A DNA stretch of 64,000 nucleotides from an uncultured Chloroflexia bacterium (GCA_963720755.1 CAVRGP010000008.1:1-64000), one strand, 5' to 3'; positions 9,484-58,051 are shown, counted from the stretch's first letter. Program-made: numbers and translations. Notes: a model not told the origin generated them from the sequence alone.

Positions 9484-9612
9484 GGCCTCGCTCCTGCCTG
9501 ACGCCCGACATCGTACCCGGCTGCGCGATCGCCGATCGGACATGGTGGGATGCCCGGCGCCCCGGTGGGCTGGGCGGTACTCTGACCACGACCACCACGA
9601 AAGAGGAGTGCG

Positions 9613-10380: not shown

Positions 10381-10420
10381 TCGGGACGAGGAGGGATCGA
10401 TGACGGAGGGAGCGTCCGAG

Positions 10421-19908: not shown

Positions 19909-19992
19909 GACGGGAGTGTAGAGGGCCGGGCCGTGGCGAGGCCGTTCCGCGGGGACGCGAGGTCGGCGCCGGAGTCCGATACGCTATCGGCG

Positions 19993-37289: not shown

Positions 37290-37724
37290 CTAGGGGAGCC
37301 GCTCGATCCCGCCCAGGTGGTCCTCGTCGTGGTCGACCGCGAGTCGGATCAGGCCCTCGACGTCGAGCACGCCGTACGTGGCGTGGACGCCGGAGCGGGC
37401 CCAACCCGCGTCGTCGAGCGCCGCGAGGATCGCCACGGTCGCCGCCCTGGCCACAGCGAACGCCGCCAGGATGTCGTCGAGCGGCGCGCCGTCGAACCCG
37501 GGCACCAGCCCCGGTTCGGTCCACGGCCAATGCGGATCGTCGTCGACCGCGACCCGGGCGAGACGTGCCTGCCAGACCTCGACCTCCACGGCGATGAGGT
37601 GCCTGGAGATCTCCGCGGGCCCCCATTCGCCGATCGGGACCGGCCGGCCGGCGCCGGAATGGGCCGCGGACGCGAGCCGCTGAGGAAAGTCGGCAAACGC
37701 GGTGACGAGGTCGTCCCGATTCAC
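37290..37724 (-). CDS. DinB-family protein
   Basis: EWGPAEISRHL...HDEDH metal-binding pattern. Confidence 0.8.
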   Translation of the reverse strand: MNRDDLVTAFADFPQRLASAAHSGAGRPVPIGEWGPAEISRHLIAVEVEVWQARLARVAVDDDPHWPWTEPGLVPGFDGAPLDDILAAFAVARAATVAILAALDDAGWARSGVHATYGVLDVEGLIRLAVDHDEDHLGGIERLP

Positions 37725-42195: not shown

Positions 42196-42207
42196 CGATG
42201 TGGCCCG

Positions 42208-43110
42208 CTAGCCGATCGGGACGGCGCGTCGATTGACCCGCCGGCGACTGACCTCACCTTCGGGCGTCGGCGTCCGGTGGGCCGTGATCCAGCGCCCGCA
42301 ATCGGGGTCGTGGCCCATCAGGACGTCGGCCGCCATGACCGCCTCCTTGACATCGGCCATCAGCGGGTTGGTGATCGCCGACGTCATCCCCGCGGCGATC
42401 GCCATCGGCAGGAACGCCCCGTTGATCCGTTCGCGGTCGGGCAGGCCGAAGCTGACGTTCGAGGCGCCGCAGGTCGTGTTGACCTTGAGCTCCTCCCGCA
42501 AACGCCGGACCAGCGCGAACACCTGCTGGCCCGCCTGGGCGAGGGCCCCGATGGGCATGACCAGCGGGTCGACGACGATGTCCGACGCGGGGATGCCGTG
42601 ATCCGCCGCCCGTTCCACGATCCGCTTGGCGACGGCGAACCGGACGTCCGGGTCCATGCTGATCCCGGTGTCGTCGTTGCTGATGGCGACGACGGCCGCG
42701 CCGTACTTGCGGACGAGCGGGAGGACCCGCTCCAGGCGTTCCTCCTCACCGGTCACCGAGTTGAGGAGGGGCTTGCCCTGGTAGACCTGCAGGCCGGCCT
42801 CGAGCGCCTCGACGATCGACGAGTCGATCGACAGCGGCAGGTCGGTCAAGCTCTGCACGAGTTGGATGGTCCGGGCGAGGATCGCCGGCTCATCGGCCAG
42901 CGGGATGCCGGCATTGACGTCGAGCATGTGGGCTCCGGCTTCCACCTGGGCAAGGACGTCACGCTCGACCCGGCTGAAATCCCCGGCCTTCATCTCCTCG
43001 GCGAGGAGCTTGCGACCGGTCGGGTTGATCCGCTCGCCGATGATCACGAACGGGCGGTCGAACCCGATGGCGACCTCGCGCGTGGCGGAGGAGAGGACGG
43101 TATCGGTCAT
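42208..43110 (-). CDS. Methylcorrinoid:tetrahydrofolate methyltransferase (pterin-binding TIM barrel, AcsE/MeTr-like)
   Basis: IGERINPTGRK, LSIDS, LNSV, GASNVSFGLP. Confidence 0.9.
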   Translation of the reverse strand: MTDTVLSSATREVAIGFDRPFVIIGERINPTGRKLLAEEMKAGDFSRVERDVLAQVEAGAHMLDVNAGIPLADEPAILARTIQLVQSLTDLPLSIDSSIVEALEAGLQVYQGKPLLNSVTGEEERLERVLPLVRKYGAAVVAISNDDTGISMDPDVRFAVAKRIVERAADHGIPASDIVVDPLVMPIGALAQAGQQVFALVRRLREELKVNTTCGASNVSFGLPDRERINGAFLPMAIAAGMTSAITNPLMADVKEAVMAADVLMGHDPDCGRWITAHRTPTPEGEVSRRRVNRRAVPIG

Positions 43111-43448
43111 GTCGCGGAGGTCTCCGATGTCGTGGCCGGCGGCAGGACCGGTCCGCCGGCGACACCGCCGGTCTGGATCAGTTCCGCCAGGTGGTGCTTG
43201 GCGTAGTCGGTCTCGAGGCGTTCCGCCTCGGCCCGGACCTCGGCCTCGATGTCCTCACCGCACGGTCGATGGGTCTTGCGCCATTCCTCGATGTAGCTGT
43301 TGTACTCACGTTTCCCGGCCCGGTTGGCCGCCTTGTCGATGGCGACCTGGAACCGGGGGTGCAGGACGATCTTGCTCGACCGGCGACCATCCTTGCCCAC
43401 GACCTGGGCCGGGATGTCACGCCACCAGATGATCGACAGGGTGGCCAT
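43107..43448 (-). CDS. Small 'Virulence factor' (PF13769-like) domain protein associated with corrinoid clusters
   Basis: WRDIPAQV...RFQVAIDKAA...YIEEWRK motif. Confidence 0.75.
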   Translation of the reverse strand: MATLSIIWWRDIPAQVVGKDGRRSSKIVLHPRFQVAIDKAANRAGKREYNSYIEEWRKTHRPCGEDIEAEVRAEAERLETDYAKHHLAELIQTGGVAGGPVLPPATTSETSAT

Positions 43449-43449
43449 G

Positions 43450-44086
43450 TCAGGCGACCTCGGCTGCGGCGACGATGGATGACTCGAGCTCGCCGTATCC
43501 GGTCCTTCGATGCTCGAAGGCCAGGCCGAGGCGCCGTGCGGCGCGACGTGCGGCCACGACGAGCCCCGGATCGTCGGTCTGGGCGAGGTAGACGAGCCGG
43601 TGATAGTTCCCGAAGTAGACCGGCAGCAGTTCCGGGTGCCGGTCGAGCCCGAGTCCGCGGATGACCAGCCGGTCGAAGTTCCGGGCCAGGAAATCGGTCA
43701 GGAAGAAGGTCGCCGGATCGTCGTCGGCGATCGCGTCGAAAGCGGACTTCCCGGCGTAGAACTGGTAGCAGTGGGCCCCTGGCAGTCGCTCGACGCCCTC
43801 CGCGGCCAGCATCACATCGAGCAGGCCGCCGGTCCCACAATCCGCGTAGGCGACGAAGATGTGCTCGTAGGCCGGTCGTGCCTCGTGGATCCTGGCCCGC
43901 ACGAGCGCCGGGATCCCGCCGGGCCGGTTGTGGAGGGTGGCCGGCAGGCAGGTCAGATCGACGTTGTCCAGGCCGGCCTGATCGATGACGGCAACGAGTT
44001 CATTGGCCAGGGCGCCGCAGCCGATGATCAGCACCCGCGAGGGATCCGGCGGGCTCGAGGCGCGAGCGGTCGGAGAATAGGCTCGC

Positions 44087-44097
<11 letters not shown>
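43450..44097 (-). CDS. DUF1638 family protein
   Basis: IGCGAL, LHNRP, YADCGTGG, HCY, FFLTDFL. Confidence 0.85.
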
Positions 44098-44788
<691 letters not shown>

Positions 44789-44806
44789 CGCTGCCTTCTC
44801 CTGGAG

Positions 44807-44842
44807 GGTTCCACGATGTGGAACCGTACCGTATGATGGAAC
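44807..44842. promoter_or_regulatory. IclR operator(s): GGTTCCAC-GAT-GTGGAACC plus an adjacent degenerate copy
   Basis: Perfect 8-bp inverted repeat between the divergent corrinoid operon and IclR; GTACCGTATGATGGAAC follows. Confidence 0.7.
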
Positions 44843-44877
44843 TCCCTGAGGGGCGAATCTAGACCACACGAGGCACG

Positions 44878-45630
44878 ATGTCCAGAGTCCAGTCCATCGA
44901 GCGGGCCTTTGCCGTCCTCGGCGCTCTTGCCGATGGACCGATCGGTGTGACTGACCTGGCGGACCGGGTCGGCCTTCCCAAGTCGACGGCCGCTCGATTG
45001 CTCGCCTCGTTGGGCCATGAAGGCGTCGTCGAGCAGGTCCCAGGGGACACGCGCTACCGCCTTGGCCCGCGTCTGGTCACCCTCGCCGCCCGGATCCGCC
45101 CGGCGCGCTCGTTGGCCGCCCTCGCCCGGCCTTCACTCGAGGAGCTCGCCGTCGCCACGGGGGAGGCCGCGGGGCTCAGCGTCGCCGACGGGCTGATGGT
45201 CCACTACATCGATCAAGTGGGCGGTCGCAACCCGGTCTCCGTGCGGGACTGGACCGGCTCGAGGATCCCGCTGCACGCCGTCCCGTCCGGCCAGGTCCTG
45301 CTCGCCCACGCCCGGCCGGCGTTCGTCCAGCGGTATCTCGGCCGGCCGATGGAGCGGTTCACGGACCGGACGCTGACGACGGCCGAGGCGCTGCTCGAGC
45401 GGATGCGAGCGATCCGACGCGACGGCTTCGCGTGGGCGCTCGAGGAATTCGACGAAGGGATCGCGTCCGTCGCGGCGCCGGTCGCCGATGGCTCCGGTGA
45501 GGTCGTGGCGGCCATCCATCTGCACGGCCCGTCGTACCGGTTCCCATCGGCCGGGATGGAGGCCGAGCTCGCGAGTCAGGTCGTCGCCGCAGCGGCGAAC
45601 ATCGCCGGGAACCTGCGCCAGACGGGCTGA
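44878..45630 (+). CDS. IclR-family regulator
   Basis: VQSIERAF...LPKSTAARLL HTH; C-terminal effector domain. Confidence 0.92.
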   Translation: MSRVQSIERAFAVLGALADGPIGVTDLADRVGLPKSTAARLLASLGHEGVVEQVPGDTRYRLGPRLVTLAARIRPARSLAALARPSLEELAVATGEAAGLSVADGLMVHYIDQVGGRNPVSVRDWTGSRIPLHAVPSGQVLLAHARPAFVQRYLGRPMERFTDRTLTTAEALLERMRAIRRDGFAWALEEFDEGIASVAAPVADGSGEVVAAIHLHGPSYRFPSAGMEAELASQVVAAAANIAGNLRQTG

Positions 45631-45774
45631 GACCGGCCGGGACGTCACACGACGGTCATCGACGGTTCACGGAATGGTCACGCCATCGACATCCCCACGA
45701 GACCGTCAGTCGCGAGTCTGGACGGCAGGTCGGGATGGACCCGACCGGACGCGACAGACCCGGAGGACCCGCCC

Positions 45775-46911
45775 ATGCGACGACGATCCACTCTTCTCAC
45801 GCTTGGAGCCAGCGCGCTCCTTGCGATCAGCGCGACCGGCTCGGTGTCGGCTGCGGGAGCCTCAGCCCCGAGCGGTCCCGCAGGCCGCCCCGGGACCGTG
45901 TACACACTCTCCAACCTTGCCGGCGGCAACGCAGTCATCGCCTTCGACCGCGGGGGCGACGGGGCATTGACCCCCGTTGCGACCTATCCGACCGGGGGCC
46001 TCGGTGGGGGCAGTGGGCTTGGCTCGCAGGGCGCCGTGGTCCTCAGCGACGATGGCCGCCTGCTGCTTGCGGTCGATGCCGGGAGCGACGAGATCACGTC
46101 GTTCCGGGTCACCCGCGACGGCTCGCTCCAGTGGGCCGATCGCGTCCCCTCGGGCGGCGACCATCCGATCAGCGTCACGATCCACCACCGGCTCGTCTAC
46201 ATCCTCGACGACGGCGGCGCCGGCAACATCGCCGGCTTCCGGATCGATCGGCGCGGGCATCTCGACGCGATCCCCGGATCGTCTCGTCCGCTCAGCGGGG
46301 CCGGTACCGGGCCCGCCCAGATCGAGTTCACCCCCCAGGGTGATGCGCTCGTCGTCACCGAGAAGGCGACCAACCAGGTCCTGGCCTACCGCGTGGGTCG
46401 TGATGGGACCACGGTCGGTCCCTCGGTCGTGGCATCCGCCGGCGCGACGCCGTTCGGGTTCGCGTTCGACCGAGCGGGCCACGCGATCGTGTCCGAGGCG
46501 ACCGGCGGGGCTCCGGGTGCGAGCACCGTGACGTCCTACGGGATCTCCGGGCGAGCCGCCATCCGGGTCGTCGACGGGCCGCTCGCGACCGGTCAGGGTG
46601 CAGCATGCTGGGTGGCGACGACGCCGAACGGCCGGTTCGCCTACGTCGCCAACACCGGGAGCGCCACGGTCACCGGACTGGCCGTTCGCGGCAACGGGCA
46701 TCTGGAACTGCTCGACGCCGATGGGGCGACCGGGCAGACCGGCGCCGGCCCGACCGACCTGGCAACGACCGCCAACGGGGCGTTCCTGTACGTCCTCAAT
46801 GGTGCCGGTGACTCGATCAGCGCGTTCCGGATCGCCGCCGACGGCAGCCTCGGCTCGCTTCCGGGCGTGACCGGATTGCCGGCCCCCGGGGTCGGGCTCG
46901 CCGTGCGCTGA
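45775..46911 (+). CDS. Secreted lactonase-like 7-bladed beta-propeller
   Basis: Signal peptide MRRRSTLL...; LGSQGA, ACWV, SISAFRI repeats. Confidence 0.8.
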   Translation: MRRRSTLLTLGASALLAISATGSVSAAGASAPSGPAGRPGTVYTLSNLAGGNAVIAFDRGGDGALTPVATYPTGGLGGGSGLGSQGAVVLSDDGRLLLAVDAGSDEITSFRVTRDGSLQWADRVPSGGDHPISVTIHHRLVYILDDGGAGNIAGFRIDRRGHLDAIPGSSRPLSGAGTGPAQIEFTPQGDALVVTEKATNQVLAYRVGRDGTTVGPSVVASAGATPFGFAFDRAGHAIVSEATGGAPGASTVTSYGISGRAAIRVVDGPLATGQGAACWVATTPNGRFAYVANTGSATVTGLAVRGNGHLELLDADGATGQTGAGPTDLATTANGAFLYVLNGAGDSISAFRIAADGSLGSLPGVTGLPAPGVGLAVR

Positions 46912-46932
46912 CCGTCGGTCTCCTCTCCCTCA

Positions 46933-46962
46933 CCCGGAAGCCCGGCCAGTGCCGGGCTTCCG
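46933..46962. terminator. 13-bp perfect hairpin after the propeller gene
   Basis: CCGGAAGCCCGGC-CAGT-GCCGGGCTTCCGG. Confidence 0.6.
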
Positions 46963-47080
46963 GCCATCCATCGCGCCCGCGCGAGTCCGACCATCGGTTG
47001 GACCGCCGGCCGGGCCGCATCCTTGACGCCCGGTCGCCGGTCGGGGCAAGCTCGGCCTCGAAGTCAGCAGCGAGGTTCCC

Positions 47081-48550
47081 GTGCCCAGTCTGTTCATCGA
47101 TGGTTCCTGGATCGCCTCGGGCGACGGCACGTGCAGCCCGGTCGTCAACCCGTCGGACGCCACGGTCGTCACCGAGGTGGACGTCGCCACGGACGACCAG
47201 GTCCGAGGGGCGATCGGTGCCGCTCGGCGCGCGTTCGACGACGGTGACTGGCCGCGACGGCCGGCCGCGGAACGGGGCGCTCTCCTGGATCGTGTCGCCG
47301 GGCTGATCGACCGGGATCTCGAGGAGATGGCCCGGCTCGAGACCCTGAACACCGGCAAGGCGATGCGCGAGAGCCGCTGGGACATGAGCGATGTCGCGCG
47401 TGTGTTCCGCTACTACGCCGACCTCGCCGACAAGGATGCGGGTCGCCTGGTGGACACCGGCTCCCCGAACGCCATCAGTCGCATCGTCCACGAGCCGGTC
47501 GGTGTGTGCGCTCTGATCGGGCCATGGAACTACCCACTGCTCCAGATGAGCTGGAAGATCGCGCCGGCGCTGGCGGCCGGCAATACCGCGGTCATGAAGC
47601 CCGCCCAGCTCACACCGCTGACCACGATCCACCTGACGCGCCTCCTCGAGGAGGCCGGTATCCCCGCGGGCGTGGTCAACCTCGTCCTGGGTCCGGGCGG
47701 CCGGGTCGGCCAGGCGCTGGCCGACAGCCCGGACGTCGACCTGATCTCACTCACCGGTGGACTCGAGGCGGGCCGCGCCCTGCTGCACGCCTCCACCGTC
47801 AACCTCAAGCGTGTGGCGCTCGAGATGGGCGGCAAGAGCCCGAACATCGTGTTCGACGACGCCGACTTCGAGACCGCAGTGGACAACGCCTTGACGGCGG
47901 CCTTCACCCACTCCGGCCAGGTCTGCTCGGCCGGCTGCCGGGCGATCGTCCAGGACACGATCTACGATCGGTTCGTCGAGGCGGTCGCGGAACGAGCCGA
48001 CCGGATCCGACTCGGCGTCGGGCTCGACGACGCGACCGAAACCGGCGCACTGATCTCAGCCGACCATCGGGCCAAGGTCGAGGCCCATGTCGCCGGTGCG
48101 CTTGCGGAGGGTGCCCGGCTGGTGGCCGGAGGTCGTCGTCCGGATGAACCTGAGCTCCAGGCCGGCTACTTCTACCGTCCGACCGTGTTCGCCGACGTCT
48201 CGGCCGACATGCGGATCATCCGGGAGGAGGTCTTCGGCCCGGTCCTGACGATCGAACGGTTCACGACGGAGGACGAGGCGATCGCCCTGGGCAACGACAC
48301 GACCTACGGGCTGGCCGGCGCCGTCTGGACCGCCGATGCCGGTCGCGCCGAGCGAGTGGCCGCCCGCCTGCGCCATGGCACGGTCTGGATCAACGACTAC
48401 AACACGTATCTCCCGCAGGCCGAGTGGGGCGGCTACAAGCAGTCCGGGATCGGCCGGGAGTTGGGTCCTTCCGGGCTCGACGAGTACCGCGAGGCGAAGC
48501 ACATCTGGCGGAACACCTCGCCAGGGCCGACCGGCTGGTTCGGCGGCTGA
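47081..48550 (+). CDS. Aldehyde dehydrogenase (betaine-aldehyde/aminoaldehyde DH-like)
   Basis: PWNYPLLQ, EMGGKSP, GQVCSAG, EEVFGP, AEWGGYKQSG. Confidence 0.88.
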   Translation: MPSLFIDGSWIASGDGTCSPVVNPSDATVVTEVDVATDDQVRGAIGAARRAFDDGDWPRRPAAERGALLDRVAGLIDRDLEEMARLETLNTGKAMRESRWDMSDVARVFRYYADLADKDAGRLVDTGSPNAISRIVHEPVGVCALIGPWNYPLLQMSWKIAPALAAGNTAVMKPAQLTPLTTIHLTRLLEEAGIPAGVVNLVLGPGGRVGQALADSPDVDLISLTGGLEAGRALLHASTVNLKRVALEMGGKSPNIVFDDADFETAVDNALTAAFTHSGQVCSAGCRAIVQDTIYDRFVEAVAERADRIRLGVGLDDATETGALISADHRAKVEAHVAGALAEGARLVAGGRRPDEPELQAGYFYRPTVFADVSADMRIIREEVFGPVLTIERFTTEDEAIALGNDTTYGLAGAVWTADAGRAERVAARLRHGTVWINDYNTYLPQAEWGGYKQSGIGRELGPSGLDEYREAKHIWRNTSPGPTGWFGG

Positions 48551-48574
48551 CCGCGGGGAGCGGAGCCTGACGTA

Positions 48575-48607
48575 GAACGGCGCCCCGGGGGACCCGAGGC
48601 GCCGTTC
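48575..48607. terminator. Hairpin between convergent genes
   Basis: GAACGGCGCC...GGCGCCGTTC 10-bp arms. Confidence 0.6.
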
Positions 48608-48628
48608 CGGTTACCAGCGTGACCGGCG

Positions 48629-50425
48629 CTACTCGGCCGGGATCTCCGAGTGGATGGCATCCAGGTCGACGCCCTGGGAGCGCCGATAGAGCCGCGCGAC
48701 GACATACAGGATGGCCGCCGCGCCGTAGACCACGCCCAGGAAGATGATCGAGTTGGCGTTCCCAACCCCGATCCCGTAGAGCGGATCCGACAACCACAGG
48801 TAGATGACCCAGGCGAGGATGATCGAGGTGATCAAGCCTGCCCCGCTGATGACCACCTTCAGGTGGGCGACCGGCGAGTTGTCGAAGATCGCCGGCTTGT
48901 GCCACGGGAGGATCGTCGCAGCCACGGTGCTGCCCAGGAACGTGACGGCGATGACCAGCGTCGCGTCCAGGGTCAACGCAGCGAAGTCCGTCGAATAAGC
49001 GTAGATCGCGCTGACGATGATCGACGGGATCATGATGAAGAGCAAAGCGATGATCGGGACGGCGCGGCGTTCCGAGACGCGGGCGGCACTCTCGGGCAGG
49101 ATCCGATCGAATGCCGCCGCGAAGATCATCCGGGTGGATGACAGGAACAGCGTCCCGGACCAGCCCAGGAACCAGACCGCGAACAGGACGATCATCCCCA
49201 TCTGGAACAGTGTGTTGTCGATGAGATACGAGGCGAGGAGCGGCGGGTAACTCCAGATCGGGACCGTCGGATCGGTCGTCGTGTAGCCGTAGAACCAGTC
49301 GATGAAGTTGACGTTCGTGGCGTTGAAGAACAGCCAGCCGAACGTATTGGCGGCGAGGAGCACGAAGACGATGGCCAGGCCGGCCGTGACCCAGATGCCA
49401 CCGAGCATGCCGCGCAGGACCTTGCGGAAGTCGCCGGAACCGCGGACTTCGCCGTACAGGGTCGATCCCCAGTTCGGATAGAGGATCCAGAACAGCATGA
49501 ACGGGATCATGGCGAGGGTGGCTGTGAGCGTCGCACCGAGATCGTCACCGAGCGCCAGCGGGTCGAGCGAGCCGGTGAAGCCATCGTTCGCCGCGGCGTC
49601 CGCGATCGTCTGGCTGTAGGCCCCGGAGACCCCGAACAGCGAGTTCGAGGCACGATCGAATGCAGCCTGGAAGTCAGCTTGCGACGAGATGAGCATGAGG
49701 GCGAACATGATGGCCAGCCCGATCAGCCCGGCGTACAGGCACCAGCGCTGGATCCGGGCGTACCCGGCCATGCCCAGGGCGACCAGGCCCGACGTCAGGA
49801 CGATGACGATGATCGATACCGTCAGGGTGCCTTCGGGGGTCGCGAAGAAGTTGACCCCGTCCGTGGACCCGAGCAGGGCCGCCAGGGGCTGGAAGAACTC
49901 GATCTTGAGGATCGCGCCGTAGATCGGCGCCCACAGCGCGAGGATGAACCACCATCCGCTGGCGGCGAGGACGAAACCGATCCCGCCCTTCAGCCGGCCG
50001 ATGAATCCACCGACGATGAGCCCGAGCACCCCCGCCCCGAGCGCGACGGTGCTGTCGAGCCCGACCGCCTGGGCGACCAGGTAGCCGGCGACCGCGCCGA
50101 CGATGGCGCCGACCGCGGTGCCGGGCAGCCCGTCGAGAACGCGGCTCTGCCAGATGTAGTCGCCGCCGGCGCGCGGCATGGCCGCGATGAGGCCGGAATA
50201 GGCGACCGCCAGGAAGGTCACGGCGATCGCCGCGAGGACGATCGAGAGCACCGGCGACGCATCCGGGACGTAGGCGAAGACCGCCAGGCTGTAGAACATG
50301 CCCAGCGTGACGAGGTTGACGGACATGAACGAGTACGTGAACGCGTCGAAGCCGGACCAGCCCTTGACCAGTCCGGTTGCGTTCCTCAGGAACAGTGATG
50401 GCGCCGAAGCCGATTGCGAGGCCAT
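48629..50425 (-). CDS. APC-superfamily amino acid/amine permease
   Basis: FLRNATGLV, MPRAGGDYIW, GEVR, RMIFAAAFDRILP; about 14 TM. Confidence 0.88.
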   Translation of the reverse strand: MASQSASAPSLFLRNATGLVKGWSGFDAFTYSFMSVNLVTLGMFYSLAVFAYVPDASPVLSIVLAAIAVTFLAVAYSGLIAAMPRAGGDYIWQSRVLDGLPGTAVGAIVGAVAGYLVAQAVGLDSTVALGAGVLGLIVGGFIGRLKGGIGFVLAASGWWFILALWAPIYGAILKIEFFQPLAALLGSTDGVNFFATPEGTLTVSIIVIVLTSGLVALGMAGYARIQRWCLYAGLIGLAIMFALMLISSQADFQAAFDRASNSLFGVSGAYSQTIADAAANDGFTGSLDPLALGDDLGATLTATLAMIPFMLFWILYPNWGSTLYGEVRGSGDFRKVLRGMLGGIWVTAGLAIVFVLLAANTFGWLFFNATNVNFIDWFYGYTTTDPTVPIWSYPPLLASYLIDNTLFQMGMIVLFAVWFLGWSGTLFLSSTRMIFAAAFDRILPESAARVSERRAVPIIALLFIMIPSIIVSAIYAYSTDFAALTLDATLVIAVTFLGSTVAATILPWHKPAIFDNSPVAHLKVVISGAGLITSIILAWVIYLWLSDPLYGIGVGNANSIIFLGVVYGAAAILYVVARLYRRSQGVDLDAIHSEIPAE

Positions 50426-50456
50426 GCTTCCCTCCTCACCCCCAAGTCCGTGGTCC

Positions 50457-51395
50457 TTAGCCGTTGATCAGCAGATAGCGCTTCACCTCGCCTTTCTTGA
50501 CATCGAGATCGACGATCGCAGCCTGGAGTACGCCGTCCTCGTACGAACTGCCGGGGTTCACCGCCAGGGTCCGGCCGAGCTTGACCGCTCCCTTGCCTTC
50601 ATGGATGTGGCCGTGCAGCGAAAGCGGCGGCCCGTACGCCAGGATGGACTCGCGTACGGCGCGTGATCCCACCGGGATGAGCGCCTGGCCGCCGGACACG
50701 TAGTTCATGTCGGCATCGAGCTTCGGGGCGCTGTCGAGGTTCGAGCCGTAGGGCGGGGCGTGGAAGTTGAAGATCGCCCGGTGGGGATCGGCGGCCTGGC
50801 TCACCAGCCCGTCGATCCGCTCCCGAAGTTCGGGTTCGGGCAGCTCCCGGAACGTGTTCCAGGGCGTCGGGTTGGCGTAGCCGGTCGAGACGAGGGTGAA
50901 CCCATCCAGCTCGATGGTGTTTCCCTCGCCCAGCTCCAGATGTCTCGCCTGCTCGATGATCGGATCCAGTTCGAAGATGTCGTCATTCGCCGGCGAGACG
51001 ATGCAGCGGATGCCGGTCCCGGTCAGTCGCTCATCGCCGAGCGCCATCCAGCGCTCGACGTTGGCCAGCATCTCCGACTTGAACCGGGTATCGACGAGAT
51101 CCGCATCTGCCGACCAGGCGTCCACCTCGTCGCGGGTCAACCGGACCGGGTAGTAGCCCCGATCGCTGATCCGCTTCTCCATCGCCCGCAGCTCGTCGTC
51201 CGTGGTCAGGACGTAGGACTGGCCCTGCAACTCCAGTTCCCAGTCCGAGCCGTTTGCGACGATGGGGACCATGGCCTTGCCGGTCATGTCGCCGCCCATG
51301 ATCAGGACGTCCGCCTTGTGGAACTTGCCGGCGTTGATGAACTTGCGCCAGCAGATCTCGGAACCGTGGATATCGGTGGCGAAGAAGATCCTCAC
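50457..51395 (-). CDS. Calcineurin-like metallophosphoesterase
   Basis: TDIHGS, GGDMTGK, PANDD, FHAPPY, HGHIHE, NPGS; GTG overlaps the upstream stop. Confidence 0.88.
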   Translation of the reverse strand: MRIFFATDIHGSEICWRKFINAGKFHKADVLIMGGDMTGKAMVPIVANGSDWELELQGQSYVLTTDDELRAMEKRISDRGYYPVRLTRDEVDAWSADADLVDTRFKSEMLANVERWMALGDERLTGTGIRCIVSPANDDIFELDPIIEQARHLELGEGNTIELDGFTLVSTGYANPTPWNTFRELPEPELRERIDGLVSQAADPHRAIFNFHAPPYGSNLDSAPKLDADMNYVSGGQALIPVGSRAVRESILAYGPPLSLHGHIHEGKGAVKLGRTLAVNPGSSYEDGVLQAAIVDLDVKKGEVKRYLLING

Positions 51396-52225
51396 GTCGT
51401 CCCGTGTCCCATCTCCTCCGGATCCTGGTACCAGGTCGCCCGTTCGCCGACCCGGGCGCGCAGCCGCCATTTCGTCGACTTGGGCGCGTCGTCGATCGCC
51501 TTCCGGAGGGCGGCGATCTGGTCGCCCGGATCGAACAGGTACGGCCGTCCGTTGGCCAGATCGAGGTCGTCCGGCTCGAGGTCGGTGGCGAGGTACTGGA
51601 CGAGCTTGTCGAGGTTGCCGGTGACGGTCCGCCACCAACCCCAGTCGTTGGACGTGAACTTGAGGATCCTGGGCACGTTGATCGAGCCCAGCCCGTGCCG
51701 CGAGTCAGGCGCACCATCGTTCGGTCCGAGCGGGTGCTCGACCAGGAGGACGAGCGCGTCGAGCACATCCTTCCGGTTGATCTTGACGACCTGGAGCTTG
51801 GACAGGAGGAGTTCGGCCAGCGGGAGGGTCGGGCTGGACACCTCCAGGCGGTCGCTGAAGTCGAAGCGGTGGCACATCTCGAGGCTGTCGACCAGGACGT
51901 CCACGGGACGCTGGCGGGGCACGTCCACGAAGTACGCCTGCTTGCCGCCGAAGAGCGCGTTGTGGCGCTTGTCGGGCGTGTAGCCCTCCGCGCTGAGGAG
52001 CGCGTAGAAGGCCGCGCGGTCCTTGGAGCGAGTCGCGAAGTCGAGATCCACCTCGACGCGGCGCGTTCTTGCGGGCCAGTCCGGGGCGTGGGCACGGATG
52101 GCCATCCCGCCCATGAGTCGGACGAGGAGTCCCTTGCTCTCCGCGACATCGACGACGCGCAACGACTCGGCCAACGGATCCTGCAGCGTCGGCAGATCGC
52201 CGGGGTCGCCAGGGCCAGCAGTCAT
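51392..52225 (-). CDS. Hypothetical nucleotidyltransferase-fold protein
   Basis: LMGGMA...DLD...VDV acidic triad and LLSKL...RKDVLD, a Pol-beta/AbiEii-like NTase layout. Confidence 0.7.
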   Translation of the reverse strand: MTAGPGDPGDLPTLQDPLAESLRVVDVAESKGLLVRLMGGMAIRAHAPDWPARTRRVEVDLDFATRSKDRAAFYALLSAEGYTPDKRHNALFGGKQAYFVDVPRQRPVDVLVDSLEMCHRFDFSDRLEVSSPTLPLAELLLSKLQVVKINRKDVLDALVLLVEHPLGPNDGAPDSRHGLGSINVPRILKFTSNDWGWWRTVTGNLDKLVQYLATDLEPDDLDLANGRPYLFDPGDQIAALRKAIDDAPKSTKWRLRARVGERATWYQDPEEMGHGTT

Positions 52226-52374
52226 CGCCCGTCCCTTCCATCGAGCACCGGTGATGCGATCGGATGCCCGATGGTCAGGGAGTATAGGGCTGCGACGAGC
52301 GTGCGCGGGCGCCCATACGGCGGGGTTCGGAGGTCCGCGTGGGGCGACACCGGTCGTCCTCCACGTTCACCGAC

Positions 52375-52403
52375 TTGACGCCCGGCCGCTGCGGCTGTCC
52401 AAT
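52375..52403 (+). promoter_or_regulatory. Putative sigma70 promoter TTGACG-N17-TCCAAT for the ABC operon
   Basis: Canonical 17-nt spacing in the intergenic region. Confidence 0.45.
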
Positions 52404-52530
52404 GCGCGCGACGACCGCACGGCTGGCCGTGCCGTCAGCCACAATGTCAGCCGGCGGCACGGGATCTCGGGAGACGAGGAGGTCTTTCGATCGCGAACCG
52501 CTGGTCATGAACGTCATCGGAGGACAGGAT

Positions 52531-53667
52531 TTGACTACGCATCGCAAGGTGACCCGGATCGCCGGGCTCCTGGTAGGCGCGAGCTTCGTGTTCGCGGCCT
52601 GCTCGTCATCCGGCTCGACGACGGCCGCCCCTGGCGCGTCCGGCGGCACCGGTTCCATGGACGCCCTCGTCACGGCCGCCAAGGCCGAGGGTGGCCTCAA
52701 CACCATCGCGCTGCCGCGCGACTGGTGCAACTACGGCGCGCTCATCGACGGCTTCACCGCCAAGTACGGGATCCCGATCAACGGGCTCAACCCGGGTGGC
52801 GGATCCAAGGACGAGCTCGAAGCCATCAAGGCCAACAAGGACAACCCCGGCCCACAGGCACCTGACGTAGTCGACGTCGGCCTGTCGTACGGTCCCCAGG
52901 GCGTGACCGAAGACCTGTACGCGCCGTACAAGGTCTCGACCTGGGACACGATTCCGGATTCGGCCAAGTCCGCGGACGGCGCCTGGTATGGCGACTATTA
53001 CGGTGTCCTCGCATTCGAAGTGAATACCCAGGTCGTGACCAACGTCCCGAAGGACTGGTCGGACCTGCTCAAGCCGGAATACAAGAACATGGTCGCCCTC
53101 GCCGGTGACCCGACCGCCTCCAACCAGGCGACCTCGAGCGTGTGGGCCTCGGCCTTCTCGCAGCCGGACGGCGGACTCGACAATGCCGCGCCCGGTCTCG
53201 ACTACTTCAAGCAGCTCAACGATGCCGGCAACTTCGTGCCGGTCATCGGCAATGCCACGACGGTCGCCTCGGGTGAGACCCCGATCCGGATCGCGTGGAC
53301 CTACAACGCGCTTGCCGACAAGGACTCGCTGGCCGGCAATCCCCCGATCGAGGTCGTCGTTCCGGCGACCGGCCAATTCGGCGGGATGTACGTCCAGGCG
53401 ATCAGCAAGTACGCACCGCATCCGAACGCGGCCAAGCTGTGGATGGAGTATCTCTACTCCGACGAGGGCCAGAACCTCTGGCTCGCGGGCTACTGCAACC
53501 CGATCCGCTATGACGACATGGTCGCCAAGGGGACCGTGGACAAGACCGCCCAGGCCAAGCTCCCGGACACCGCCGGGACCAACCTGCCGACCCTTGACCA
53601 GATCACGAAGGCTGCCGACGTGATCACAACGGGCTGGCCGACCGTGGTCGGGGTGACCGTTCAGTAG
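52531..53667 (+). CDS. ABC substrate-binding lipoprotein (PotD/AfuA-like)
   Basis: Lipobox FAAC; TIALPRDWCNYG, APDVVDVG, APHPNAAKLW; TTG start with SD. Confidence 0.88.
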   Translation: MTTHRKVTRIAGLLVGASFVFAACSSSGSTTAAPGASGGTGSMDALVTAAKAEGGLNTIALPRDWCNYGALIDGFTAKYGIPINGLNPGGGSKDELEAIKANKDNPGPQAPDVVDVGLSYGPQGVTEDLYAPYKVSTWDTIPDSAKSADGAWYGDYYGVLAFEVNTQVVTNVPKDWSDLLKPEYKNMVALAGDPTASNQATSSVWASAFSQPDGGLDNAAPGLDYFKQLNDAGNFVPVIGNATTVASGETPIRIAWTYNALADKDSLAGNPPIEVVVPATGQFGGMYVQAISKYAPHPNAAKLWMEYLYSDEGQNLWLAGYCNPIRYDDMVAKGTVDKTAQAKLPDTAGTNLPTLDQITKAADVITTGWPTVVGVTVQ

Positions 53668-53701
53668 TGAGGGACCTGCCCGTGCCGACTCCGGTCGTAC
53701 G

Positions 53702-54595
53702 GTGACAGCAACGACGGCTCGGGGCGCGCCAGCGGCGCGCCCCGTCCGGCGCCGCCTGGGCTGGTCATGGCTCGGGCTCGTTCCGTTCCTCCTCTTCGCC
53801 ACGGCCTTCCTCCTCGTGCCGACCTTCGGTCTCGTCGTCGGCAGCTTCCAGGATCCGGCCGGACAACCCACCCTCCAGAACTACGCAGATCTGTCCCAGC
53901 CGGGGATCGTCAGCGCATACGTCACCAGCATCGAGATCAGCCTGGTCACGGCCCTCCTCGGAGGGCTGTTCGGTTTCCTGCTCGCCTATGCAGTCATCTC
54001 CGGCGGCCTGCCCGGACCGTTCCGGGGCGGACTCATGACCTTCTCCGGCGTGGCCTCCAACTTCGCGGGCGTCCCGTTGGCCCTGGCATTCACCTTCACC
54101 CTGGGCCGCCTCGGGTTCATGACCGTCTTCCTCAAGGACATTCTCGGGATCGACATCTACGGGAATGGGTTCACCATCTACTCCAAGCTCGGGCTGGAGA
54201 TCGTGTACCTCTACTTCCAGTTCCCGCTCATGGTCCTGATCATCGCCCCGGCCATCGACGGTCTCCGCCAGGAATGGCGCGAAGCGTCCGAGAACATGGG
54301 GGCGAGTTCCTTCCAGTACTGGCGTCATATCGCCCTGCCGATCCTCACGCCGACCCTGCTCGGGACGATGATCCTGTTGTTCGGGAACTCGTTCGGCGCG
54401 CAGGCGACCGCCTATCAGCTGACCGGCGGACAACTCAACATCGTGACCCTGCTCATCACCCGCCAGATCCGCGGCGATGTGCTGAACAACCTGGGTCTCG
54501 GCTACGCGGTCGCGATGGGGATGGTCGCCATCATGGGCGCGACGATCCTGATCTACGTTTGGCTGCAGCGTCGAGCGGAACGGTGGCAACGATGA
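53702..54595 (+). CDS. ABC permease
   Basis: EAA loop WREASENMGA. Confidence 0.9.
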   Translation: MTATTARGAPAARPVRRRLGWSWLGLVPFLLFATAFLLVPTFGLVVGSFQDPAGQPTLQNYADLSQPGIVSAYVTSIEISLVTALLGGLFGFLLAYAVISGGLPGPFRGGLMTFSGVASNFAGVPLALAFTFTLGRLGFMTVFLKDILGIDIYGNGFTIYSKLGLEIVYLYFQFPLMVLIIAPAIDGLRQEWREASENMGASSFQYWRHIALPILTPTLLGTMILLFGNSFGAQATAYQLTGGQLNIVTLLITRQIRGDVLNNLGLGYAVAMGMVAIMGATILIYVWLQRRAERWQR

Positions 54596-55398
54596 AGCTG
54601 ACGAGACTCTGGTGGTGGGTCGTCTTCATCATCGGGTTCCTGTACTTCTTCCTGCCGTTGCTCGGAACGTTCGAGTTCTCGCTCGGCCACCCGCTCGGGC
54701 CGGTCCACGCTCCGGCGACCTTCGACTTCTACCGGGAGGTCATCAGCAGCCCAGCCTTCTGGCAGAGCCTCGGGTACTCGTTCATCGTCGGCGTCATCAC
54801 GATCGTGGTCAGCATCGCGCTGATCATGCCCACCGCATTCTGGGTCCGGCTCCGGGTCCCCAAGGCTCGACCACTGGTCGAGTTCATCACCCTGATGCCA
54901 TTCGTGATCCCGCCGATCGTGCTGGTCTTCGGCCTTCTCAAGACGTACAGCAAGCCGCCGTTCCCGTTCACCTACACGGACCTCGGCAGCACCGCCCTCC
55001 TCGTCTTCGCGTACGTCATCCTGTCGTTCCCGTACATGTACCGGGCGGTCGATACGGGGCTCCAGGCCATTGACATCCGGACCCTCACCGAGGCAGCCCA
55101 GAGCCTGGGGGCAGGCTGGACACGGATCATCCTGCGAGTCATCCTCCCGAACGTCCGGGTCGCCCTGCTGAGTGGTGCCTTCCTGACCCTGGCCATCGTC
55201 ATCGGTGAGTTCACCATCGCCATCTTCCTGGCCCGGCCGGCATTCGGACCGTATCTCTCTTTGCTCGGGCAGAACAAAGCGTACGAACCGGCGGCGGTCT
55301 CGATCATCAGCTTCGGCCTGACCTGGCTGGCCATGATCCTCATCGCCTTCATCGGCCGTGGGTCGCGCACCGGGGTCACCCTCGGCGGTGCCCGCTAG
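54592..55398 (+). CDS. ABC permease
   Basis: EAA loop LTEAAQSLGA. Confidence 0.9.
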   Translation: MKLTRLWWWVVFIIGFLYFFLPLLGTFEFSLGHPLGPVHAPATFDFYREVISSPAFWQSLGYSFIVGVITIVVSIALIMPTAFWVRLRVPKARPLVEFITLMPFVIPPIVLVFGLLKTYSKPPFPFTYTDLGSTALLVFAYVILSFPYMYRAVDTGLQAIDIRTLTEAAQSLGAGWTRIILRVILPNVRVALLSGAFLTLAIVIGEFTIAIFLARPAFGPYLSLLGQNKAYEPAAVSIISFGLTWLAMILIAFIGRGSRTGVTLGGAR

Positions 55399-55416
55399 GA
55401 TGGACGAGGAGGCCCG

Positions 55417-56544
55417 ATGTCGTTCCTGACCCTGACAGGGATCCAGAAGCAGTTCCCCGGTGGCGTCGTCGCCGTGGCCGACTTCAATCTCGAAGCGGTC
55501 CGAGGTGAGTTCGTGTCGTTCCTGGGGCCGTCCGGGTGCGGCAAGACGACGACCCTCCGGATGATCGCCGGGTTCGAGAGGCCGACCGCCGGCACGATCG
55601 TCGTCGACGGGACCGACATCACCTATCAGGCCCCCAACCAGCGCAACGTCGGGATGGTCTTCCAGTCCTACGCGCTGTTCCCCAACATGAACGTGGCCGA
55701 CAACATCGGCTTCGGGCTCAAGGTCCGCAAGCGACCCAAGGCCGAGATCGCCCGGAAGGTCGCCGAGCTGATCGAGATGATGCATCTGGACGGTCGCGCC
55801 GACCGGTTCCCGTGGCAGATGTCGGGTGGCCAGCAACAGCGGGTCGCGCTGGCCCGCGCGCTGGCGATCGAGCCGCAGGTGCTCCTGCTCGACGAACCAC
55901 TGTCTGCGCTCGACGCGAAGATCCGGATCGTCCTTCGCTCGGAGATCCGGTCGATCCAACGCCAGCTCGGGATCACGACCGTCTACGTCACCCACGATCA
56001 GGAAGAGGCCCTCTCGCTGTCGGATCGGGTGGTCGTCATGAGCGACGGTCACGTGGAGCAGATCGGCACACCGTCGGAGATCTATAACTTCCCGAGTACG
56101 GCCTTCGTCGCGTCCTTCGTGGGGACGCTCAACCTGGTCAACGCGGGTGTCATCGACGTCGAATCCGGCCGGCTCTCGATCGACGGGCAGGAAGTCCGGA
56201 CGAGCAAGACGATCACAGGTGTCGGTGCGGGCGGTCGCGTGACTCTTGCCGTCCGGCCCGAAGGGATCAGTCTCGGTGACGGCGAAACCGGCGTGAACCG
56301 GGTAAAGGGCACCCTCCAGGACATCAACTTCCTCGGGTCGATCGTCCGGCTCCGGGTGCGGCTCGATGCCGACACGAGCGGCAGCGGACGCACCGTCGTC
56401 GCGCTCGACACCTTCAACGAGCCACACCTCGCGCTCCCGGCCGTCGGGGAATCGATCGCCATCTCGTTCCCGCCTGAGGCCTGTTTCGTCCTCGGGGCCG
56501 CCCGTGACGAAGCGTCGGGTGCGGAGGCCGGCTCCGAGGTATGA
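55417..56544 (+). CDS. ABC ATPase (PotA-like, TOBE domain)
   Basis: GPSGCGKT, FQSYALFP, SGGQQQR, DEP. Confidence 0.92.
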   Translation: MSFLTLTGIQKQFPGGVVAVADFNLEAVRGEFVSFLGPSGCGKTTTLRMIAGFERPTAGTIVVDGTDITYQAPNQRNVGMVFQSYALFPNMNVADNIGFGLKVRKRPKAEIARKVAELIEMMHLDGRADRFPWQMSGGQQQRVALARALAIEPQVLLLDEPLSALDAKIRIVLRSEIRSIQRQLGITTVYVTHDQEEALSLSDRVVVMSDGHVEQIGTPSEIYNFPSTAFVASFVGTLNLVNAGVIDVESGRLSIDGQEVRTSKTITGVGAGGRVTLAVRPEGISLGDGETGVNRVKGTLQDINFLGSIVRLRVRLDADTSGSGRTVVALDTFNEPHLALPAVGESIAISFPPEACFVLGAARDEASGAEAGSEV

Positions 56545-57296
56545 CCGCCGGGCCGGCTGGCCTGGACCTCCGCGCAGTCGACCTGGTCATCTTCGACAAG
56601 GACGGCACGCTTATCGACTTCGAGTCGATGTGGAGCCCGTGGGCAGTCGCCCTGGCCCAGGCGCTCCGGTCGGCGACTGGCCGCGCCATCGACGGCCCCC
56701 TCTTCGAGATGCTGGGCTACGACGCCGCGACGGGCACGGTCCGGCCCGGCGGCGGACTGGCCGCGACGCCGATGGCCCGCCTACGGGAACGAACGCGTGA
56801 CGTGCTGATCGAGGCGGGGGTGCCCGAAGACGATGCCGACCGTGCTGTCGAGGCAGCATGGCACGCCCCGGACCCGGTCGGGCTCGTCCACCCGCTCGTG
56901 GATCTTGCCGGGCTGTTCGGCCGGCTGCACGCAGCCGGGATCGCGGTCGCCATCGCCACCAGCGACGACCGCAGCCCCACGGAACGGACGCTCGCGGCCC
57001 TCGGCCTATCCGGCGTCATCGACGCGATGGTCTGTGCCGACGACGGTGTCCCACTCAAGCCGCAGCCGGACATGGTCCTGCGGCTGTGCGGCGAGGTCGG
57101 CGTGTCGCCGACACGCACGGCCGTCGTGGGCGATGCGCCGGCGGATGTGCAGATGGGCCGCTCCGCGGGCGCCGGGCTCGTGGTCGGGGTCCTGACCGGC
57201 GTCGGGACGCGAGCCGACCTGGAGTCGCTGGCCGATGTCGTGATCGACTCGATCGACGACCTGATGGCGAGGACCGGGGGCGTCCGCCCGTTCTAG
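56541..57296 (+). CDS. HAD-superfamily hydrolase
   Basis: FDKDGTL, ATSD, KP, VGDAPAD. Confidence 0.9.
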   Translation: MTAGPAGLDLRAVDLVIFDKDGTLIDFESMWSPWAVALAQALRSATGRAIDGPLFEMLGYDAATGTVRPGGGLAATPMARLRERTRDVLIEAGVPEDDADRAVEAAWHAPDPVGLVHPLVDLAGLFGRLHAAGIAVAIATSDDRSPTERTLAALGLSGVIDAMVCADDGVPLKPQPDMVLRLCGEVGVSPTRTAVVGDAPADVQMGRSAGAGLVVGVLTGVGTRADLESLADVVIDSIDDLMARTGGVRPF

Positions 57297-58051
57297 GCGC
57301 GACCGCCCATGAGGCGGAGCATGAACAGGAACAGGTTGATGAAGTCGAGGTAGAGGCGGAGTGCGCCGATGACGGCCGCCTTCTCCATGGAGCCCGTCTG
57401 CGCGGCCAGGTCACCCGACTGGATCCGCTGGACGTCATAGGCGGTCAGTGCGGTGAACAGGACGACCCCGATGACCGAGATGAGCCACGTGATCGGCGTG
57501 CTCTGGAGGAACAGGTTCAGGACCATCGCCACGAGCAGTCCGATGACGCCCATGAACATGAGCCCGCCCATCTTGGCCAGCGAGCGCTTGGTGACCGCGC
57601 CGTAGATCGCAGCCGCCCCGAACATCGCCGACGCGCTGAGAAAGGCCGTGACCACGGAACCGGTCGTGTAGCTGGCCACGATCAGGCCGATGGTGATGCC
57701 GAGCGAAGCCGCATAAACGAAGAACAAACCGAGCGCGGCCGTGGCACTGATCTTGTTGATGCCGGCGCTGATGACGACGACGAGTCCAAGCTGGGCCATG
57801 AACAGGATGAAGAAGCTGCCACTCGCGAAGTTCAGCAGGGCATCGTTACTCTGGACCGCGTAGGCGACGATCGCGGTCGCCAGCAGGCCGGCGAACATCC
57901 ACAAGAAGGCCTGGGACAGGAATGCAGCCTGCAGCCGCGCATCGGGCTTGACGCCCAGGGCCGACGGCGTGGCTCCCGGCGTGTGCGCGATCCCAGAGGC
58001 GGGGACGGCTGGCGGGGCGGAGTATCGAGTCGGGTTCTGGTTCTGTGTCAT
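57293..58051 (-). CDS. Bax inhibitor-1/YccA family membrane protein
   Basis: 7 TM; AYDVQRI, ALRLYLDFINLF. Confidence 0.92.
   Translation of the reverse strand: MTQNQNPTRYSAPPAVPASGIAHTPGATPSALGVKPDARLQAAFLSQAFLWMFAGLLATAIVAYAVQSNDALLNFASGSFFILFMAQLGLVVVISAGINKISATAALGLFFVYAASLGITIGLIVASYTTGSVVTAFLSASAMFGAAAIYGAVTKRSLAKMGGLMFMGVIGLLVAMVLNLFLQSTPITWLISVIGVVLFTALTAYDVQRIQSGDLAAQTGSMEKAAVIGALRLYLDFINLFLFMLRLMGGRA

Follow-up and report, generated by a model that had tools for sequence, protein, structure and literature searches.

A conserved genomic module of a nucleotidyltransferase-fold protein, a metallophosphoesterase and an APC permease

Three adjoining genes and their products

We analysed a 64,000-nucleotide (nt) stretch of DNA, about 69% G+C, from an uncultured Chloroflexia bacterium (GCA_963720755.1, CAVRGP010000008.1:1-64000; the whole stretch is called the window below). 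It contains three adjoining genes that a preliminary description had read as a co-oriented operon, and all three open reading frames (ORFs) do lie on the minus strand. We refer to their products as NT (a nucleotidyltransferase-fold protein), MPE (a metallophosphoesterase) and APC (an APC-superfamily permease). NT, at 51392..52225 (-), starts with ATG and encodes a predicted soluble Pol-beta-fold nucleotidyltransferase of 277 amino acids (aa). MPE, at 50457..51395 (-), starts with GTG and encodes a predicted cytoplasmic binuclear metallophosphoesterase of 312 aa, and APC, at 48629..50425 (-), starts with ATG and encodes a probable choline-type importer of 598 aa with 14 hydrophobic segments. 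A longer MPE ORF from a TTG at 51638 exists only mechanically, and we placed the start at the GTG because the homologues, which have 312 aa, begin MRIFFATD.

The TGA of NT (51392-51394) and the GTG of MPE (51393-51395) form a GTGA stop/start overlap (51392..51395, -), which may couple the translation of the two genes. Overlap recurs at 21 of 41 NT>MPE junctions in related loci, by 4 nt in 9 and by 1 nt in 12. The TAA of MPE (50457-50459) is followed by a 31-nt spacer to APC, in which a GAGGAGG ribosome-binding site can be read at 50431..50437 (-), 5 nt ahead of the APC ATG. The convergent APC and aldehyde dehydrogenase (ALDH) genes are separated by a G+C-rich hairpin (48576..48606) with 14 perfectly paired bp and a loop of 3 nt. 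Its 81-nt context has a folding energy of -46 kcal/mol (z = -3.1), a stability that none of 200 shuffles reached. The overlap, the spacer with its ribosome-binding site and the closing hairpin were thus all present as first described. The hairpin is likely a terminator without a T tract; a consensus scan of 48300-52600 returned 0 T-tract terminators and no sigma-70-like promoter. A candidate -10 element of the operon is a TATACT box at 52281..52286 (-), inside a conserved CCTATACTC and 56 nt upstream of the NT ATG, whose TATAC columns are at least 90% conserved when the upstream regions of the window and of 12 type-A loci, 13 in all, are aligned. An Rfam search of 43000-58000 found no riboswitch or other RNA at E<=1.

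Relatives of NT numbered 3706 among 8000 candidates scored. Clustered at 50% identity, the family gives 1990 clusters with E<=1e-3, 329 of them with E<=1e-30, and NT is 81-97% identical across its 120 best database homologues. The GG-x-A...DxD...D and KL...KD..D layout that had been claimed for the protein is present (G38-G39-x-A41, D60-x-D62, D109, K143-L144, K152-D153 and D156) and largely invariant in 84 diverse full-length homologues, in which G39, D60, D62, H119, K143, Q145 and D156 never vary and D109 and D153 are at least 90% conserved; in the C-terminal part W195, G196, K249, W253, R256, G260 and W265 are invariant in the same set. Pfam NTP_transf_5 (PF14907) scored 15.4 bits on NT (E 0.014), below its gathering score of 31.2, and 54 of the 84 homologues matched it at E<=0.01, the best at 5e-8. 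By these profile scores NT is a distant relative of PF14907 and not a member. Aminoglyc_resit reached 14 bits against a cutoff of 21, NCBIfam and PADLOC searches with NT gave no match, and one database homologue carries only automatic "nucleotidyltransferase family" names. In PDB searches NT as a single sequence had no match at E<=10, and a profile gave only weak N-terminal matches.

An AlphaFold2 model of NT (pLDDT 91.5, pTM 0.90) places G38-G39 at the junction of strand 35-38 and helix 39-46, D60 and D62 at strand 61-65 and D109 in strand 106-112, with a helical C-terminal domain after the nucleotidyltransferase core. These are the expected places in the fold, whose alpha-beta-alpha-beta core has an hG[GS] turn, [DE]x[DE] in the strand after it and a third carboxylate in a later strand. 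Foldseek searches of the PDB with this model returned nucleotidyltransferases only, the best being MenT1 (8an4_B, E 6e-4), with further matches to CdnE (6wt9, E 8e-4), JHP933, LnuA, MenT4, CCA-adding enzymes, MenT3/TglT and ANT(2'')-Ia; TM-scores on the query were 0.2-0.43. Model and fold search therefore agree with the nucleotidyltransferase fold that had been expected of the first protein, and by the model NT is a member of the Pol-beta-like nucleotidyltransferase superfamily, with a nucleotidyltransferase core in a protein that as a whole has no close solved relative. Viral structure models gave no match to NT at E<=1e-3. Among ten longer NT homologues, one carries an N-terminal winged helix-turn-helix of the MarR/IclR type and the other nine were uninformative. 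We rejected membership of NT in the AbiEii/MenT (type IV-VII) toxin families, given the absence of an antitoxin neighbour and of a PADLOC match, the AbiEii match in 1 of the 84 homologues and the way NT follows host phylum (see below). A CBASS/CD-NTase system was also rejected, with no PADLOC match, a TM-score to CdnE of only 0.28 and no effector gene.

MPE matches Pfam Metallophos (PF00149) at 27.7 bits, above the cutoff of 21.5, and its AlphaFold2 model (pLDDT 95.1) confirms the fold predicted for a member of that family. The best Foldseek matches are aq_1956 (2yvt, 5e-12) and TT1561 (1uf3, 3e-10), with TM-scores on the target of about 0.7, and next come Mre11, MPPED2, GpdQ, LpxH, SbcD, YmdB and 5'-nucleotidases. 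The PDB titles of aq_1956 and TT1561 name no function, and we know of none assigned to either. The motifs of MPE are D8-x-H10, G35-D36-M-T, A136-N137-D138-D139, H212 and H261-G-H263, and all 7 of its 7 metal ligands (D8, H10, D36, N137, H212, H261 and H263) are invariant in 58 sequences. The atypical GDMT and ANDD that had been pointed out among its calcineurin-like metal motifs are both there and conserved: across the 58 sequences GNH is replaced by (A/G)NDD, and the position of the His is an invariant Asp138. Also conserved is an insert, about 90 residues long, that separates motif II from motif III. Protein Ser/Thr phosphatases of the PPP type carry the signatures GDxHG, GDxVDRG and GNHE; MPE has DIHG, GGDMTGK and ANDD instead and no PPP family among its Pfam and NCBIfam matches, and we rejected that assignment. 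Its C-terminus matches the PADLOC candidate PDC-S10, a generic match; APC has no PADLOC match. Hydrophobic-segment prediction found none in NT and none in MPE, so both are probably cytoplasmic, and both look active.

Permeases of the APC superfamily have a 12-transmembrane (TM) LeuT-type core with a G[ST]G-like motif in TM1 and a G-E motif in TM6. APC matches AA_permease_2 (PF13520) at 33.3 bits, above the cutoff of 27, and its profile finds in the PDB GkApcT (6f34, at 4.9e-19), then LAT2, xCT, CAT and AdiC. Position 17 is always Ser or Thr, and G18, G325 and E326 are invariant. These matches place the permease in the APC superfamily as a remote member. It has 14 hydrophobic segments and not 12, the two extra ones lying in a glycine-rich insert of about 48 residues (about residues 100-148; window 49982-50128, -), which has a weak Gly-zipper Pfam match and is missing from an MPE-APC fusion protein described below.

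Conservation and diversification of the trio

Genomes, one per species, were pattern-scanned for NT relatives with an alignment of 15 sequences, and we examined the best 80 of at least 586 NT-related stretches of species-representative genomes. These 80 loci are mostly from Chloroflexota, largely Limnocylindria, and nine are from Actinomycetota. MPE and APC were scored as present within 6 kb of NT by hidden Markov models made from the loci's own ORFs, and hits split over frames in some loci from long-read bins (for example L005, L033, L035 and L040) were counted as present. Both genes were found near NT in 62 of the 80 loci. In four only MPE was found, and there the contig stops 306-1230 nt past NT (in L038 not before the end of a complete MPE); six had only APC, always divergent from NT. 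The remaining eight had neither; in one of them the contig ends just beyond NT and in another at 270 nt on its upstream side. In five loci with NT but without MPE or APC (L044, L046, L050, L052 and L071), an Amidohydro_3 gene occupies the usual divergent position of APC.

The loci with all three genes show six gene orders. The order of the window, NT>MPE>APC, occurs in 39 and MPE<APC<|NT> in 14; others include APC>MPE>NT, MPE>APC>NT and APC<MPE<|NT>. Since the orders are six, selection on linkage is indicated rather than inherited synteny, and the trio is not a chance neighbourhood. In L078 (9517-10485) and L079 (9702-10667; Actinomycetota) APC is directly followed by another, divergent paralogue of MPE with 35-37% identity to that of the window.

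We also searched 72,556 PLSDB plasmid records by tblastn. NT was found on one, the Halobellus limi megaplasmid NZ_CP031312.1, where the gene order is IclR, iron-containing alcohol dehydrogenase, aldehyde dehydrogenase, metallophosphoesterase, hypothetical (which is NT) and APC permease. The MPE and APC queries each found the same 2 of the 72,556 records, that of Halobellus and one of Thermomicrobium roseum, in which the order is APC>MPE>nitrilase-like hydrolase and NT is found neither within 10 kb nor elsewhere on the plasmid. The co-occurrence in other genomes on which the first description had been staked is thus seen in Chloroflexota and Actinomycetota and on one haloarchaeal plasmid.

The permeases of these loci fall into two subfamilies, at least 40% (subfamily 1) or about 20-30% (subfamily 2) identical to that of the window. 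To compare the histories of the three proteins, we correlated pairwise identities over 50 complete trios and obtained values of 0.91 for APC-MPE, 0.77 for MPE-NT and 0.60 for APC-NT. Maximum-likelihood trees were built from 47 rows, with L066, L079 and L081 omitted for long branches or a paralogue; their p-AU values are to be read as indicative. The subfamily-1 MPEs group in a single clade of the MPE tree (support 97.8), and forcing the Actinomycetota MPEs together is rejected (p-AU 1.5e-5). In the NT tree it is the Actinomycetota that form one clade (support 100), whatever the adjoining subfamily, and forcing the subfamily-1 NTs together is rejected (p-AU 0.0145). Locus L054 illustrates this, with an NT 58% identical to that of the window beside MPE and APC that are 79-81% identical. 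From the correlations and the trees we infer that MPE and APC are a co-evolving pair and that NT is a component of the host lineage that serves either subfamily: in these sequences the MPE/APC subfamilies each cross phylum borders, and NT follows host phylum.

The two partners of the pair differ in where they have changed. Columns that discriminate the subfamilies number 40 of 598 in APC, including residues beside the TM1 and TM6 motifs, and 6 of 312 in MPE, in which 35 positions, covering every active-site motif, are invariant over both subfamilies. Longer MPE-containing proteins numbered 14, and among the eight sequences that we read were an in-frame NT-MPE fusion (P0403, 588 aa) and an in-frame MPE-APC fusion (P0398, 860 aa).

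Likely cargo and possible roles of the two enzymes

The convergent neighbour of APC is a gene for an ALDH resembling betaine-aldehyde dehydrogenase (BADH) at 47081..48550 (+), which matches NCBIfam TIGR01804 at 615.5 bits, below the cutoff of 668.6. An ALDH at least 74% identical stands in the same convergent place in 21 of the 80 loci, and the lactonase gene adjoining it in the window (45775-46911) is not conserved in related loci. Beyond the ALDH lie an IclR regulator and then a complete-looking cluster for corrinoid-dependent demethylation of quaternary amines (37721-44869, -). Its genes encode an MTHFR-like protein, an MttB-family protein, a RACo activase, a pterin-binding methyltransferase, a small "Virulence_fact" (PF13769) ORF, DUF1638 and an MtgC-like corrinoid protein. 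The MttB-family gene (38590-40129, -) is split between two frames with the junction near 39450, Pfam MTTB positions 1-218 being in the frame of ORF 38684-40129 and 219-500 in that of ORF 38590-39669; a pseudogene, a programmed shift or an error of sequencing could explain the split. In the Acidimicrobiales locus L075 we find again IclR, corrinoid protein, RACo, MTHFR-like protein, NT, MPE, APC and ALDH, and also an MttB-type corrinoid cluster.

On the other side, NT is preceded by a divergent operon (52339-57296, +) for a PhnS-like solute-binding protein, a double-length ABC permease, a PhnT2-like ATPase and a PhnX-like HAD hydrolase, all below curated cutoffs. The solute-binding-protein gene, present in 25 of the 80 loci, is the upstream neighbour of NT, and nothing beside NT is antitoxin-like, as had been remarked from the start. 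The region between the two genes holds conserved CATTGGACA and GGGCGTCAAGAGGATG blocks, and given their conservation the solute-binding-protein gene may start later than its mechanical ORF. Elsewhere in the window are two unusual ORFs, for a 647-aa protein with C-terminal ankyrin repeats (8818-10761, -) and for a 926-aa protein in which a shikimate-kinase-like domain is joined to an inosine-uridine nucleoside hydrolase (18826-21606, +).

In related loci the context again points to choline oxidation. A GMC oxidoreductase stands beside the trio in 4 loci, 3 of them in Actinomycetota, and the one of the four that we tested, in L077, is BetA by TIGR01810 (831 bits against a cutoff of 732). A protein resembling dimethylglycine or sarcosine dehydrogenase occurs in 11 loci. 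The best matches of the Halobellus alcohol and aldehyde dehydrogenases are GbsB at 303 (cutoff 550) and BADH at 472 (cutoff 669). Among the window genes we found no choline dehydrogenase. Because probable choline-oxidising enzymes of two unrelated kinds lie beside one subfamily in three phyla, choline or a close quaternary amine is the likeliest cargo, and on this gene context the permease of the Limnocylindria-like window probably imports such a compound. Aromatic residues are expected at a binding site for quaternary ammonium, and the permeases of subfamily 1 have extra conserved aromatics by the TM1 and TM6 motifs (W23, W313, Y316 and Y324), which is weak evidence that fits such a site.

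The operons of subfamily 2 are different in content. They run from APC through an Amidohydro_3/amidase gene or caprolactamase-like HyuAB genes to MPE, and NT is divergent, often followed by a CN-hydrolase; some loci have creatinase/ectoine-hydrolase-like, acetylpolyamine-amidohydrolase-like or uricase-pathway genes. No phosphate chemistry is evident in the genes of these operons. This, together with an MPE active site that is constant across subfamilies while the surroundings of the permease motifs differ, makes the cargo an unlikely target, and as far as sequence comparison goes the two enzymes probably act on something else. That NT does not track the APC-MPE pair likewise speaks against nucleotidylation of the imported amine.

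The best explanation of these patterns is that the trio would be a conserved uptake module in two tiers, with a core of APC and a dedicated MPE and with NT as a third part. In the mechanism that we propose, NT would use a nucleoside triphosphate to place a nucleotidyl phosphodiester on a constant target other than the cargo, which could be a small nucleotide signal or the assembly of permease and MPE. MPE, at the cytoplasmic face of the permease, would hydrolyse the mark made by NT, and with the mark written or removed uptake could be tuned to the state of the cell. Such a cycle of writer and eraser is plausible but speculative, and we put forward NT and MPE as a control cycle on a constant target only tentatively, at well short of even chances. 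The narrower proposal, a reversible nucleotidylation switch on the APC permease itself or on permease-bound MPE, is unlikely.

Several observations weigh against this proposal. A mark on the permease would make both enzymes track the permease, and only MPE does so. Conserved Ser, Thr and Tyr residues of APC that might be modified proved to be those of ordinary APC transport motifs, and no metallophosphoesterase is known to us to remove nucleotides from proteins. NT stands without either partner in the eight loci described above, and the T. roseum pair has no NT nearby. The groups in the trees were named only once the identities and a first tree had been seen, which is why the p-AU values are indicative. 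Both in-frame fusions are singletons on unassembled or short contigs; of other apparent fusions, P0393, P0400 and P0401 (NT-MPE or GCV_T-MPE) have alternative-frame stretches between their domains and were discarded as frameshift read-throughs in high-G+C contigs, and P0397, P0399 and P0402 have truncated junctions and are probably assembly chimeras. The BADH match of the window and the BADH and GbsB matches of Halobellus fall below curated cutoffs. Finally, the co-diversification of MPE and APC is explained equally simply by a substrate that they share.

It is from this last point that a metabolic role for MPE, a serious rival although we think it doubtful, would start. The permease would import, or the cell hold, a phosphoester or nucleotide-linked amine such as phosphocholine, glycerophosphocholine or CDP-choline, MPE would free the alcohol for choline dehydrogenase and BADH, and NT would make or recycle a nucleotide-linked intermediate. 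Operons commonly pair a transporter with the first enzyme of its pathway, and the genes after subfamily 1 encode alcohol and aldehyde oxidisers of two unrelated kinds, GMC BetA and the GbsB-like iron-containing alcohol dehydrogenase. The PhnS-like transporter and PhnX-like hydrolase that flank the trio of the window, with the solute-binding protein recurring as noted, point the same way, as do the fold neighbours of MPE, which include the glycerophosphodiesterase GpdQ, the UDP-sugar pyrophosphatase LpxH and 5'-nucleotidases. However, the active-site motifs of MPE are the same in both subfamilies although the permease pocket differs, the amidohydrolases, amidases and HyuAB of the subfamily-2 operons need no phosphoesterase, and NT does not co-diversify with the MPE-APC pair. 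To our knowledge, moreover, the cargos of APC permeases are amines and amino acids and not phosphoesters, and the phosphocholine cytidylyltransferases have a different fold.

A nucleotide second-messenger pair is a further alternative. In this explanation NT would make a linear or cyclic nucleotide, MPE would be its phosphodiesterase, and the signal would gate the permease, by analogy with c-di-AMP and osmolyte uptake. An NT that is generic across subfamilies and follows its host would suit such a system, as would the constant active site of MPE. The fold matches are also compatible, NT with the CD-NTase CdnE and MPE with Rv0805, MPPED2 and YmdB, which are cyclic-nucleotide or 2',3'-cyclic nucleoside monophosphate phosphodiesterases, and the NT-MPE fusion resembles synthetase-hydrolase fusions. 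Set against this are the low TM-score to CdnE given above and a permease with APC motifs only, in which no nucleotide-binding receptor domain was seen. A freely diffusing signal would also leave unexplained why MPE tracks the permease subfamily, and we consider the messenger improbable.

It is also possible that APC and MPE work together alone and that NT is a separate housekeeping enzyme, kept nearby through shared regulation or inherited synteny. The T. roseum pair, the eight loci with NT alone (five with an Amidohydro_3 gene instead), the agreement of the NT phylogeny with phylum and the low NT identity in L054 would all be expected. Adjacency, however, is kept over six gene orders, three phyla and two domains, stop/start overlaps are found at about half of the NT>MPE junctions (21/41) and an in-frame NT-MPE fusion exists, and this explanation seems to us distinctly improbable. 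A toxin-antitoxin or defence role, in which MPE would neutralise a MenT/AbiEii-like NT toxin, is hardly credible: although MenT1 is the best solved match of NT, with MenT3, MenT4 and JHP933 after it, one of the 84 homologues touches Pfam AbiEii and MPE matches PDC-S10, the TM-scores are 0.25-0.38 on the query and concern the nucleotidyltransferase core only, neither PADLOC matches for NT or APC nor an antitoxin-like neighbour nor a viral structure match was found, the gene context is catabolic, and the high identity over the 120 best homologues and the adherence to phylum are the opposite of patchy, fast-evolving toxin-antitoxin and defence genes.

Whichever explanation holds, NT stands for a large group of proteins, with about 2000 clusters at 50% identity, for which there is no dedicated family model. 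In abundant Chloroflexota of soil and fresh water (Limnocylindria), in Actinomycetota and in a haloarchaeon, the module probably serves the uptake side of the catabolism of choline, glycine betaine and methylated amines, and given this ecological reach its function bears on osmolyte turnover and on one-carbon and nitrogen turnover. Control of the permease by both enzymes, if real, would add a new kind of regulation for secondary transporters. If they form a switch, uptake of nutrient amines would be under post-translational on/off control by a MenT/ANT-like writer and a calcineurin-fold phosphodiesterase eraser, in a form found widely among soil Chloroflexota and Actinomycetota and also occurring in haloarchaea. 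If instead the enzymes are metabolic, they would open a new route from phospho- or nucleotide-linked amines.

Comparison with known systems

A full-text literature search returned no description of the trio, in keeping with the earlier remark that no characterised pathway with these three genes was known. In the part of one article that mentions PF14907, the subject is a phosphonate cluster and not the trio (PMC8942020). We conclude that the trio is a conserved module that has not previously been described.

In the GlnD/GlnE switches and the RelA/SpoT-type pairs, a writer of nucleotidyltransferase fold is joined with a phosphohydrolase eraser, sometimes in one fused protein, and these systems concern the uptake or assimilation of nitrogen compounds; in switches of the GlnD/GlnE type the nucleotidyltransferase puts NMP on a Tyr, Ser or Thr of a protein and the paired hydrolase takes it off. 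The trio would work most like these pairs, without being a member of them, and resembles them in the overlap of its NT and MPE genes and in the one NT-MPE fusion. It differs in that its hydrolase, of another superfamily, is calcineurin-like and not an HD or second nucleotidyltransferase domain. No HD, ACT or PII component is part of the trio, and its sequence relationship to these systems does not extend beyond the fold. The "split GlnD" of the preliminary description is best kept as an analogy only.

MenT1, MenT3 and MenT4, AbiEii (DUF1814) and JHP933 include the best solved matches for the NT core and share with NT the motifs hG[GS], DxD and third Asp and, towards the C-terminus, a K...KD..D helix motif. 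Their TM-scores on the query are 0.25-0.38, however, and their identity to NT is 12-17%. The trio has no antitoxin gene, and NT, which is vertically conserved, lies among catabolic genes and has a larger helical C-terminal domain with its own invariant residues (W195-G196, K249, W253, R256 and W265). ANT(2'')-Ia and LnuA/LinB nucleotidylate hydroxyls of amine-rich small molecules, and their N-terminal GG...DxD aligns with that of NT both by profile (4xje, E 0.006; 4wh5, 0.07) and by fold (4fo1, TM-score on the target 0.62). With about 160-185 aa these enzymes have no counterpart of the helical C-terminal domain, NT is not a member of their families, and the trio has no resistance context.

The nearest solved relatives of MPE, aq_1956 and TT1561, and more distantly GpdQ, LpxH, Rv0805, MPPED2 and Mre11, have the same fold and metal ligands. 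MPE is set apart from aq_1956 and TT1561 by some 90 additional residues separating motifs II and III and by NDD in place of NH[DE], and it is always beside an APC permease.

Choline catabolism is organised in the bet and gbs clusters, with BetT/BetA/BetB/BetI and GbsA/GbsB. The transporter of the trio is an APC permease and not a BCCT or ABC transporter, and NT and MPE are without counterpart in known bet and gbs clusters. What some of the loci described here appear to have in common with them is the assembly, in one cluster, of a regulator, a probable choline dehydrogenase of the GMC or iron-containing alcohol dehydrogenase kind, a betaine-aldehyde-dehydrogenase-like protein and a transporter.

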